A stretch of DNA of 20,906 nt from Promethearchaeota archaeon (lineage in GTDB: Archaea > Asgardarchaeota > Odinarchaeia > Odinarchaeales > JBHLKK01), in assembly GCA_048939465.1 (NCBI GenBank), contig JBHLPL010000026.1:1-20906 (forward strand), given 5' to 3'. The translations under genes and the position numbers were made by a program. Shown here in pieces: positions 5,606 to 7,016 of the stretch. Numbering within the stretch: position 1 is the first letter of the stretch; each line of letters opens with the position of its first letter. The notes beneath the pieces were generated by a model. It was not told the DNA's origin, did not search any database, and worked only from the letters and a program-made list of their open reading frames with translations.

Positions 5606-6688
5606 ATGCCAATAGGGATTATACTTGTTCGTTGGGATGACCGCGTAGGGACTATTGTGGAAGCGAAATATCCGCCAGACGTGAGAGCAGATCCTGACTT
5701 GGCAATGAAGATTTATGGTGCGCATGTTCTGGGTGAGAGAGGCCCCGGTTTCTTGATGATGAAGGTTGACAATCTCAACATCGCAAGCTATTATTCGGGC
5801 GTAGAGCTGAATTACTTCGTTGCTCTGATAATGGCTCCTGATGAAGAAGCTTCGATTTTCGAGGAAGGATTAACCGAAGTAGCTGGAGAGATTTTTACCC
5901 GAGTAGTTAAGAAAGAGGGGAAAAAGGCACTGAAAGAGCTTTACCCGCAACTTGTAAGATTTCCCACACTTACCTTGGAGCAAAGGATTGCATTAATATT
6001 CTCAGATCCGACCAGAGCCCAAATACTGGACTATTTAACGAGAGAAGGCAATTCAACTAAGTCGGACCTCGAAGATTTGCTTAAGCGTGTCTTGAAACTA
6101 AAAGCTATAAATATAGATGCAGTATTATCCGCTCTAATTAAGATGGGTATGGTTACAACAGAGTGGGTTGAGGGTCTTCCTACCGAATGTGTTTTTCTTA
6201 AGCGAGACGCATTCCTCATACGTGTTCCCCCCAGAAATACGATTGAGAAAATCAGAAATGGGAACATCATGGAGCCTTTAGCATCGAGGTATATGGATGA
6301 GGTCACAAAGTACTTCGAGAAATATGAACCAAATCAAAAAGATATTAAACAGATAAGTCAGGTTCTAACAGTTCCTGACTTTTACGATGTATTAGACAGC
6401 TTAAGAAATAGTCAAATACTACGTACGCAACTACCTATCGTGCTCAACAGGAGCAAAAATGAAATCGAAAAAGCAGTAAGAGAAATGATAAAACAGAAAT
6501 TCATCGCCTCATTGAAGGATGACGATGGGAGAGAGTGGCTGTTTCTGAAAACTGACCCAAGGATTATTACATTCTATCCGGAGTATTGCGTTCAAATTGC
6601 GGCCGAGAAGTACAACAATAAAGAAATACCTCCGAGACAAGCAATGCGTCATCTGCTAATCCTTAAGGAAAATCATAGAGAAATGTAG
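5606..6688 (+). CDS. Longin (uDENN-like) domain plus tandem winged-helix protein, NPRL2-like architecture
   Basis: The first ~120 aa fit the longin b-b-a-b-b-b-a-a pattern and begin GIILVRWDDRVGTIVEAKYP. Two wHTH-like units end in the repeat ECVFLKRDAFLIRVPP / EWLFLKTDPRIITFYP. The fold call is by eye. Confidence 0.7.
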   Translation: MPIGIILVRWDDRVGTIVEAKYPPDVRADPDLAMKIYGAHVLGERGPGFLMMKVDNLNIASYYSGVELNYFVALIMAPDEEASIFEEGLTEVAGEIFTRVVKKEGKKALKELYPQLVRFPTLTLEQRIALIFSDPTRAQILDYLTREGNSTKSDLEDLLKRVLKLKAINIDAVLSALIKMGMVTTEWVEGLPTECVFLKRDAFLIRVPPRNTIEKIRNGNIMEPLASRYMDEVTKYFEKYEPNQKDIKQISQVLTVPDFYDVLDSLRNSQILRTQLPIVLNRSKNEIEKAVREMIKQKFIASLKDDDGREWLFLKTDPRIITFYPEYCVQIAAEKYNNKEIPPRQAMRHLLILKENHREM

Positions 6689-6698
6689 GTGAGAAGAG

Positions 6699-7016
6699 AT
6701 GGGAATATGGACAAGAATAAAATCATGGTTTGGATCTCTTTTTAGACGTTCACCGAGTGTGGCCCCCAAGAAACTTGAGCCCGAAGCTAAATCAGAGTGG
6801 CGAACGCTAAAGGATGAGTTCGGAAGTCTGTCAGAAGAACGAGACAGTCTCAGGGAACAATTGGGTGAACTTGATGTTAAACTGGCCGGTGGCGAGATTG
6901 ACGTAAAGCAAAGGGACAAGGAGTATCGAACAAAACTATCTAGAGCTGCCTTCATTGCCCGTCGTCTTAACGAAATTCGGTCAAGAGCCGCAGAGCTTGG
7001 CAGGCCAATATCATAG
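6699..7016 (+). CDS. Small helical protein with an N-terminal amphipathic helix and a helical hairpin
   Basis: AGGTGA RBS; starts 10 nt after the upstream stop; MGIWTRIKSWFGSLFRR, then heptad-rich helices around LAGGEI...EY; T-rich tract follows the stop. Confidence 0.75.
   Translation: MGIWTRIKSWFGSLFRRSPSVAPKKLEPEAKSEWRTLKDEFGSLSEERDSLREQLGELDVKLAGGEIDVKQRDKEYRTKLSRAAFIARRLNEIRSRAAELGRPIS

Follow-up and report, generated by a model that had tools for sequence, protein, structure and literature searches.

Longin proteins and the control of small GTPases

NPRL2 and NPRL3, which correspond to yeast Npr2 and Npr3, are the longin subunits of GATOR1/SEACIT, the GTPase-activating protein (GAP) complex of RagA/Gtr1, and NPRL3 is devoid of an arginine finger. 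C9orf72 is the non-catalytic longin-DENN subunit of the C9orf72-SMCR8-WDR41 complex, a GAP acting on Arf proteins. More generally, longin and roadblock dimers dock GTPases in GATOR1, folliculin, C9orf72-SMCR8, Ragulator and MglB, and the layout of winged helix-turn-helix (wHTH) units in NPRL2/NPRL3 and ESCRT-II serves protein contacts. In NPRL2 and NPRL3 the N-terminal longin domain is followed by two or more wHTH repeats (Levine 2013, PMC3747258). Asgard archaea have related components: several of their longin families are called NPRL2-like by Liu et al. (bioRxiv 10.1101/2020.10.19.343400, Fig. 5c), Asgard longins are linked to eukaryotic GAP longins in another paper (PMC12290439), and Asgard longin-GTPase fusions have been catalogued (Tran et al. 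2024, PMC10933270). Although these archaea encode small GTPases, and longin or roadblock proteins as well, by the dozen, a regulator can seldom be assigned to its GTPase, since linkage between the genes is rare; in fact, Asgard GTPase genes generally lie outside operons with longin or roadblock genes (PMC10933270). The present work concerns a pair of genes, encoding the proteins named P0001 and P0002, in a 20,906-nucleotide (nt) stretch of DNA from a Promethearchaeota archaeon (contig JBHLPL010000026.1 of assembly GCA_048939465.1), the whole of which is hereafter called the window.

The two genes are the following:

5606-6688, + strand: open reading frame (ORF) for P0001, 360 amino acids (aa), NPRL2/NPRL3-like longin domain plus tandem wHTH units
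6699-7016, + strand: ORF for P0002, 105 aa, amphipathic helix at the N-terminus, then a helical hairpin

With moderate confidence, the pair is interpreted here as the in-place remnant, in a reduced two-gene form, of a conserved three-gene Asgard module, in which P0001 would be a longin platform or non-catalytic regulator of a longin-fused Arf-like GTPase. The three-gene linkage is the main new result, NPRL2-like Asgard longins and longin-GTPase fusions being already published, and no paper describing this gene order was found in full-text literature searches.

Conserved gene order with a longin-fused Arf-like GTPase

The survey was carried out on 201 genomes of the phylum with thresholds of E <= 1e-10 for the P0001 family and E <= 1e-60 for the GTPase type; the closest P0001 orthologues were those with E < 1e-110 and the more distant paralogues those with E from 1e-80 to 1e-103. 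Gene neighbourhoods were scanned with local hidden Markov models at 28 orthologue or paralogue loci, 20 fetched after the survey and 8 before it. In distant relatives the gene located directly 3' of the P0001 orthologue encodes a protein of 275-298 aa that matches Arf, Ras and Roc and consists of some 110 aa of N-terminal domain, weakly matched by longin families (Clat_adaptor_s and Fuz_longin_1), and of a G domain in which the GxxGVGKT, DxxGQ and NKQD motifs are intact and whose nearest solved structures belong to the Arf family. This GTPase type is present in 117 of the 201 genomes. By comparison of coordinates, 14 sampled genomes or more, from families f7, f8, f13, f15 and f19, have the P0001 orthologue at most 60 nt from the longin-GTPase gene; in family f6 further copies either adjoin the longin-GTPase gene or are found about 7-8 kb away from it.

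The recurrent order, recorded for orthologues of six or more Asgard families besides that of the window, is longin-wHTH2, longin-GTPase and, in third place, a P0002-type protein (12 of the 16 loci with an orthologue) or a longer coiled-coil protein (three further loci); the distant paralogues are mostly without both neighbours in the stretches fetched. P0001 and P0002 stand side by side with no adjacent GTPase gene in the genus of the window and in one other lineage (L022/L028). An earlier note, made on this DNA from its letters, had made its reading depend on the conservation of the two genes as a pair and had proposed a regulator of a small GTPase: the genes do recur together across the Asgard loci surveyed, and the GTPase link is backed by the conserved gene order in other Asgard lineages. 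This order suggests which GTPase P0001 works with.

In the source genome (1.96 Mb, 91% complete) there is exactly one orthologous GTPase and a single P0002-type gene; the longer coiled-coil type is missing. The longin-fused Arf-like GTPase, encoded at C148:7137-7982, is 48% identical over its full length to that of Ranarchaeia, and a congeneric genome has the orthologous gene on the contig of the pair, 24 kb away. On the evidence of gene order in the related lineages, the product of C148:7137-7982 is the most likely GTPase partner of P0001. The prediction of a complex of P0001, P0002 and this GTPase gave a score of 0.00, with controls not run and no answer returned, and counts neither for nor against binding.

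The earlier note had looked for the partner in the window itself, in an Arf-like gene considered in repaired form, and this choice is probably wrong. The gene, at 11236-11895 on the + strand, contains an in-frame TAA at 11635-11637 where the related Hodarchaeota contig L020 has TTG (Leu) in an intact gene of 198 aa, the rest being 92% identical at the DNA level; the TAA is either a recent nonsense mutation, an error of sequencing or a site of read-through. As the primary candidate for the partner of P0001 this gene was rejected, its product being without a longin domain and the gene lying near the pair, among the 28 loci, only in L020, the closest relative.

A further ORF, of 611 aa, at C148 5041-6876 on the - strand, is transcribed divergently from the longin-GTPase gene and shows by eye N-terminal small-GTPase motifs (GDGMVGKTS, DLGGQ and NKTD) followed by a long C-terminal region.

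Family and fold of P0001

The homologues of P0001 retrieved by a word-indexed search form 23 clusters with 29-88% identity, all from Asgard archaea, Hodarchaeota and Ranarchaeia among them. In the survey the family is present in 147 of the 201 genomes and in 45 of 59 genera, often in multiple copies, and five paralogues of P0001 occur in the source genome. The longin family to which P0001 belongs is wider and includes 307 clusters at E <= 1e-3; P0001-type longins also lie towards the C-terminus of 1300-2500-aa proteins or form whole proteins of about 120 aa (P0052, P0058, P0074, P0076, P0083 and P0085). Three same-order relatives of P0001 (G013:C1:129274-130359, G001:C1:233038-234123 and G035:C95:1310-2395) were flagged with one in-frame stop (TAA or TGA) within the matched region, which may be due to an alignment running past the stop codon or to broken genes.

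The search of P0001 against Pfam and NCBIfam gave sub-threshold matches only, of wHTH type, at residues 131-186 and 262-313, and neither P0001 nor its longin profile found a meaningful match among the sequences of solved structures. The AlphaFold2 (AF2) model of the whole protein, built on the homologue alignment, has a mean predicted local distance difference test score (pLDDT) of 89.8 and a predicted template modelling score of 0.76, and shows a longin domain, two units made of three helices and a hairpin, corresponding to wHTH, and two final helices. When this model was compared with the PDB by Foldseek, the NPRL2/NPRL3 chains of GATOR1/SEA ranked first, followed by ESCRT-II, folliculin-FNIP and DENND10. 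The domains of P0001 are listed below:

5606-5971, + strand: longin domain, residues 1-122 (AF2 pLDDT 92 for the domain modelled alone)
5972-6229, + strand: first wHTH unit (wHTH1), residues 123-208, from AF2 secondary structure; wing with the strongly conserved acidic motif EWVEG.P.E.VFL.RD
6335-6577, + strand: second wHTH unit (wHTH2), residues 244-324, from the AF2 model; ArsR/SmtB-type matches
6578-6685, + strand: final pair of helices, residues 325-360, in which Y336, N337 and Q345 are conserved, from the model and conservation

The longin domain has the secondary-structure order b-b-a-b-b-b-a-a over residues 1-122 in the AF2 model. Its first Foldseek matches in the PDB are again the NPRL3/NPRL2 chains of GATOR1/SEA (E from 2e-4 to 1e-3, probability 1.0), and C9orf72-SMCR8, FNIP2, TRAPP longins, the Lokiarchaeal longin 8yqg, DENND1 and VAMP7 come next. 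The comparison was repeated with VIA, a structure aligner independent of Foldseek, which gave Z 11.2-12.6 and a root-mean-square deviation of 2.6-3.0 over 121-122 residues for NPRL2 chains (8fw5_B included, Z 11.7), an equally good Z of 12.2-12.8 for the Lokiarchaeal longin 8yqg, and Z 10.8 and 10.5 for yeast Npr2/3 (8adl_S) and VAMP7, respectively; for C9orf72 the Foldseek E was 2e-3 and the VIA Z 8.8. The longin fold of the N-terminal domain is thus confirmed at the level of the model.

These results agree with the earlier note, which had recognised an N-terminal longin-type pattern and two wHTH-like units, had likened this layout to that of NPRL2/NPRL3 and had proposed a Foldseek comparison with both proteins. 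The strand and helix order of the model and the longin domains found as best fold matches bear out the first point, the modelled units at residues ~123-208 and 244-324 the second, and PMC3747258 together with the top structural matches the third; NPRL2 and NPRL3 are the first eukaryotic proteins retrieved whether the longin domain or the whole model is compared. The end repeat that the two wHTH units were said to share (6185-6232 and 6533-6580) survives in part: both wing hairpins (residues 194-209 and 310-325) contain the short pattern FLK.D..hI...P, and no significant repeat is present. BLASTP of wHTH1 against wHTH2 produced no alignment, and the end repeat is therefore a short motif only. 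Taken as modelled, P0001 would be an Asgard member of the NPRL2/NPRL3-like longin proteins, a placement that belongs to the overall explanation held here to be moderately probable.

Absence of a conserved arginine finger

In the longin domain W10, G15, T16, P23, P30, M34, Y37, G38, H40, L42, G43, F49, L57, A60, S61, G65 and E80 are invariant in 21 relatives and D11 is at least 90% conserved, so that a WD-x3-GT motif (W10-D11-x3-G15-T16) occupies the loop between b1 and b2. No Arg is invariant in residues 1-122 across the 21 relatives. The b4-b5 loop of P0001 (SYYSGVELNYF, residues 61-71) contains no Arg, as the earlier note had read; the position of L68 is Leu, Val or Ile in all 21 members, the remaining loop residues being variable, and the finger residue of NPRL2, Arg78, is presumably placed in the b4-b5 loop opposite L68, judging from the order of secondary structure. 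In the b1-b2 loop a basic residue precedes G15 by two positions: residue 13 is Arg in 12 and Lys in 9 of the 21 members. According to PMC12290439, GAP-type longins have a GP motif just before strand 2, and in C9orf72 the essential W33-D34 precede G38-P39 by five residues; at the place of the GP motif the P0001 family keeps the Gly (G15) and has Thr (T16) instead of Pro.

Owing to the lack of a conserved Arg and to the WD-x3-G motif, the family looks most like the Arg-less partner subunits, and the preference of the earlier note for a scaffold or guanine nucleotide exchange factor (GEF) over an Arg-finger GAP is supported in kind. The signature WD..G[TA]..EAK[YH]P is common to all six paralogues of the source genome. 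The sole paralogue with an Arg in the b4-b5 loop is a protein of 461 aa encoded at G000:C79:4377-5762 on the - strand, in which the loop reads SSMTREKF and the Arg stands opposite Leu68 of P0001; it is a candidate Arg-finger member that could pair with the Arg-less ones.

P0002, a small helical protein

The Atlas model of P0002 is a helical hairpin, whose structural neighbours are only generic helical hairpins, and the hairpin contains the turn motif G-x-I-D...RD..Y. At the N-terminus a further helix was identified:

6702-6746, + strand: amphipathic helix of P0002, residues 2-16, GIWTRIKSWFGSLFR, hydrophobic moment 0.56-0.67, mean hydrophobicity ~0.1

An indexed search with P0002 retrieved close relatives only (80-89% identity), one of which adjoins a P0001 orthologue in a Hodarchaeota genome; the reading of gene neighbours revealed additional homologues of 100-138 aa in the clusters of distant P0001 relatives. 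These proteins share the amphipathic N-terminal helix and an invariant hairpin core, E..ER...R...G.I....RD......L..A, and M1-G2 is invariant in the 8 of 8 homologues aligned. The longer coiled-coil protein (154-215 aa), present in many clusters, shares with P0002 the turn G-x-[IV]...EY and falls slightly short of the SHOCT cut-off. Coiled-coil genes of three clusters of distant relatives (L001:4349-4996, L021:8380-9078 and L023:6035-7267) end in a weak wHTH match of HTH_69 or LexA type.

Against Pfam and NCBIfam P0002 has sub-threshold matches only, and an ESCRT-III-like reading found no family match. SHOCT (PF09851) was considered and rejected for P0002, which has no match to it at E <= 1 and resembles it only at the level of the motif G-x-I...EY; a related 170-aa protein of the L003 cluster scored 23.9 bits against SHOCT, for which the cut-off is 27. 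The invariant M1-G2 led to a search for N-myristoyltransferase (PF01233) in the source genome, which gave no match and is uninformative, as the control matched nowhere either.

The earlier note had considered P0002 a putative membrane anchor. The protein is helical, and the amphipathic helix at residues 2-16 is the sole feature of membrane type in it; a transmembrane helix, meaning about 20 hydrophobic residues, is missing across the 105 residues. Amphipathic N-terminal helices bind membranes in Asgard Arf-related GTPases (bioRxiv 10.1101/2024.02.28.582541), and from the properties of the helix we infer that P0002 could bind membranes in this way.

Alternative explanations

P0001 could also be regarded as a transcription factor, in which the longin domain would sense a ligand or the state of a GTPase and the wHTH units would bind DNA, P0002 being a co-regulator or an unrelated protein. 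TrmB is matched in Pfam by 16 of the 21 members of the P0001 family (best E 3e-9) and HTH_9, TFIIE-alpha, MarR and ArsR by others, wHTH2 superposes by VIA on ArsR/SmtB repressors with Z ~9, and some sources label relatives of P0001 as 'transcriptional regulator'. A basic recognition helix and wing suited to DNA were however not found: the isoelectric point (pI), although charge is an indirect indication, is 4.1-6.7 in most members (4.4-6.7 for wHTH1 across the family, ~4-6 for wHTH2 in 15 of 21), the recognition-helix positions have few conserved basic residues, and the most conserved stretch of wHTH1 is the acidic wing (E186, W187, V188, E189, G190 and E194), with three nearly invariant Glu residues. 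Moreover, the genes conserved beside that of P0001 code for a GTPase and for coiled-coil proteins, and metabolic targets are not among them. On the basis of their acidic charge, the wHTH units are read as protein-contact modules, the use to which the same layout is put in NPRL2/NPRL3 and ESCRT-II; DNA binding appears unlikely, and a function of P0001 as transcription factor improbable.

Two other functions depart from the GTPase platform in different directions. P0001 might serve mainly as an adaptor, a clamp on the cytoplasmic tail of a membrane or surface protein, with a secondary link to the GTPase and, in this organism, with the basic N-terminal region of P0002 as the clamped ligand. In some orthologue clusters there is a protein longer than 1000 aa that has ConA-like, Ig-like or CarboxypepD_reg-type domains, and P0001-type longins also form the C-terminal part of 1000-2500-aa proteins; nevertheless, the GTPase is the more constant neighbour, no gene for such a giant protein adjoins P0001 in the window, and the single query made for a giant-protein homologue found none in the source genome, which is 91% complete, a result that does not by itself show absence. 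A tail-clamping role thus seems rather unlikely. Alternatively, P0001 itself could be a catalytic GAP in the manner of NPRL2, FLCN or SMCR8, acting through some basic residue in place of the canonical Arg finger: the structures nearest to it are longins of GAP complexes, position 13 is Arg or Lys in 21 of 21 members, and the GTPase keeps the catalytic Gln and could therefore be stimulated in trans. This is very unlikely considering that the same position 13 is Lys in 9 of 21 members, that the residue presumably opposite the NPRL2 finger is always aliphatic (Leu, Val or Ile), other loop residues being variable, that the longin domain has no invariant Arg, and that the WD-x3-G motif resembles that of the non-catalytic C9orf72, not of SMCR8.

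The reading of P0001 as a platform for the longin-GTPase has to face several observations that weigh against it. The wHTH sequences resemble DNA-binding domains of the archaeal TrmB/MarR type. P0001 is without a sequence-level match to NPR2, NPR3 or any longin family of Pfam: in particular, P0001 had no match to NPR2 (PF06218) or NPR3 (PF03666) at E <= 1, and in its 21 relatives neither is among the 25 Pfam families listed of the 66 matched, so that common descent with NPRL2/NPRL3 rests on fold and layout. The GTPase gene is unlinked to the P0001-P0002 pair in the source genome, and the module may therefore have been rewired. The longin profile of P0001 and that of the N-terminal domain of the GTPase were compared by hhalign with a probability of 1.4%, which indicates that they are not close paralogues and weakens a simple paralogous pair of the NPRL2/NPRL3 style. 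Lastly, a groove in a protein, and not a membrane, could be what the amphipathic helix of P0002 binds.

Proposed role of the module

In the proposed mechanism the longin domain of P0001 would be a docking platform for the longin-GTPase of C148, by analogy with GATOR1, folliculin, C9orf72-SMCR8, Ragulator and MglB, and may pair with the longin domain that the GTPase itself carries. Lacking an Arg finger, P0001 would act as a scaffold, an exchange factor or a non-catalytic half, not as the catalytic subunit of a GAP, and its two acidic wHTH units would be used for protein contacts. The hairpin of P0002 would join the complex and its N-terminal amphipathic helix would place it at the membrane; all the binding steps, the location at the membrane and the direction of regulation are what we infer from fold, conservation and gene linkage. 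Compared with the membrane-tethered small-GTPase regulator that the earlier note had envisaged, the GTPase link, supported by gene order, and the missing Arg finger are retained, whereas the tether would be an amphipathic helix, not a transmembrane one, and the partner GTPase is probably a different one.

More tentatively, the three genes might encode a GTPase platform docked at the membrane, which would correspond in archaea to the eukaryotic assemblies of GATOR1/Ragulator type and might be ancestral to them, the hairpin protein being a LAMTOR1-like tether; we regard this broader view as doubtful, and if it were true the Hodarchaeota version would be a minimal form of such a platform. From the conserved order an NPRL2/NPRL3-like protein can be given two likely partners, one specific Arf-like GTPase and a small helical protein. 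The three proteins are small, soluble-looking and co-expressible, and could show whether longin-based GTPase control and docking by amphipathic helices predate eukaryotes. The value of this window is moderate, since it holds the reduced two-gene form and the family is already labelled NPRL2-like in the literature.

Transcription signals and flanking genes

The ORFs of P0001 (360 aa) and P0002 (105 aa), the gap of 10 nt between them (6689-6698) and the ribosome-binding site of the second gene are all as the earlier note had given them. The signals found around the pair are the following:

5520-5533, + strand: candidate archaeal promoter, A/T-rich TATA-like box aaaaatatatataa, ~70 nt upstream of the P0001 gene, read by eye
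5592-5599, + strand: purine-rich ribosome-binding site GGAGAGAG, preceding the ATG at 5606
6688-6692, + strand: GGTGA ribosome-binding site, overlapping the TAG stop codon of the P0001 gene, 6 nt before the ATG of P0002
7025-7058, + strand: candidate archaeal terminator 3' of the P0002 gene, T-rich tract with T6 at 7025-7030 and T5 at 7050-7054, read by eye

Given the promoter-like, ribosome-binding and T-run signals around 5606-7016, all recognised by eye, a two-gene transcription unit made of the P0001 and P0002 genes is plausible. The upstream flank at 4575-5207 (+ strand) encodes a protein with DUF7523 and an ACT domain and the downstream flank at 7158-8471 (+ strand) a TIGR00375/MJ0043_C-type protein; both genes are arranged in the same way in the related Hodarchaeota contig L020 and lie outside the module in other lineages.

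Comparison with known systems

The locus is closest to NPRL2/NPRL3, which among eukaryotic structures match both the longin domain and the whole model of P0001 best. P0001 shares with them the N-terminal longin domain with two wHTH repeats behind it and a tie, genetic or functional, to a small GTPase with a longin or roadblock domain of its own. The differences are also clear: P0001 is without a Pfam match to NPR2/NPR3 and without a conserved Arg finger, has GT and not GP before strand 2, and at 360 aa lacks the eukaryotic inserts; the GTPase linked to it is Arf-like with an N-terminal longin domain, in contrast to the Rag proteins with their C-terminal roadblock domain; and a DEPDC5-like partner was not seen, none having been searched for. 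C9orf72 resembles P0001 in the W-D-x3-G-[P/T] motif at the b1-b2 loop, with identical spacing according to the numbering in PMC12290439, in having no Arg finger of its own and in the longin fold match; it continues into a DENN module where P0001 continues into wHTH repeats, and T16 of P0001 replaces its Pro.

Among archaeal proteins, the NPRL2-like families of Liu et al. belong to the same phylum and have the same kind of longin domain as P0001, whereas the Asgard longins highlighted in PMC12290439 have the GP motif and the Arg finger that the P0001 family does not have. Neither work, as far as it was read, describes an order of three genes that includes a longin-Arf-like GTPase and a hairpin protein with an amphipathic helix. 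For P0002 the likeness is to LAMTOR1/Ego1, the anchor of Ragulator/EGO, which is small and mostly helical, has a membrane-targeting N-terminus and holds an assembly of roadblock or longin proteins with GTPases at a membrane; it is a pure analogy, of function and not of sequence or fold, and LAMTOR1 is lipidated where P0002 has an amphipathic helix. The GTPase adjacent to P0001 in other lineages has the architecture catalogued by Tran et al., an N-terminal longin domain joined to an Arf/Rag-like G domain, and with regard to the rule reported in PMC10933270 the P0001 cluster is an exception, which gives a pairing of regulator and GTPase that can be read from the genome.

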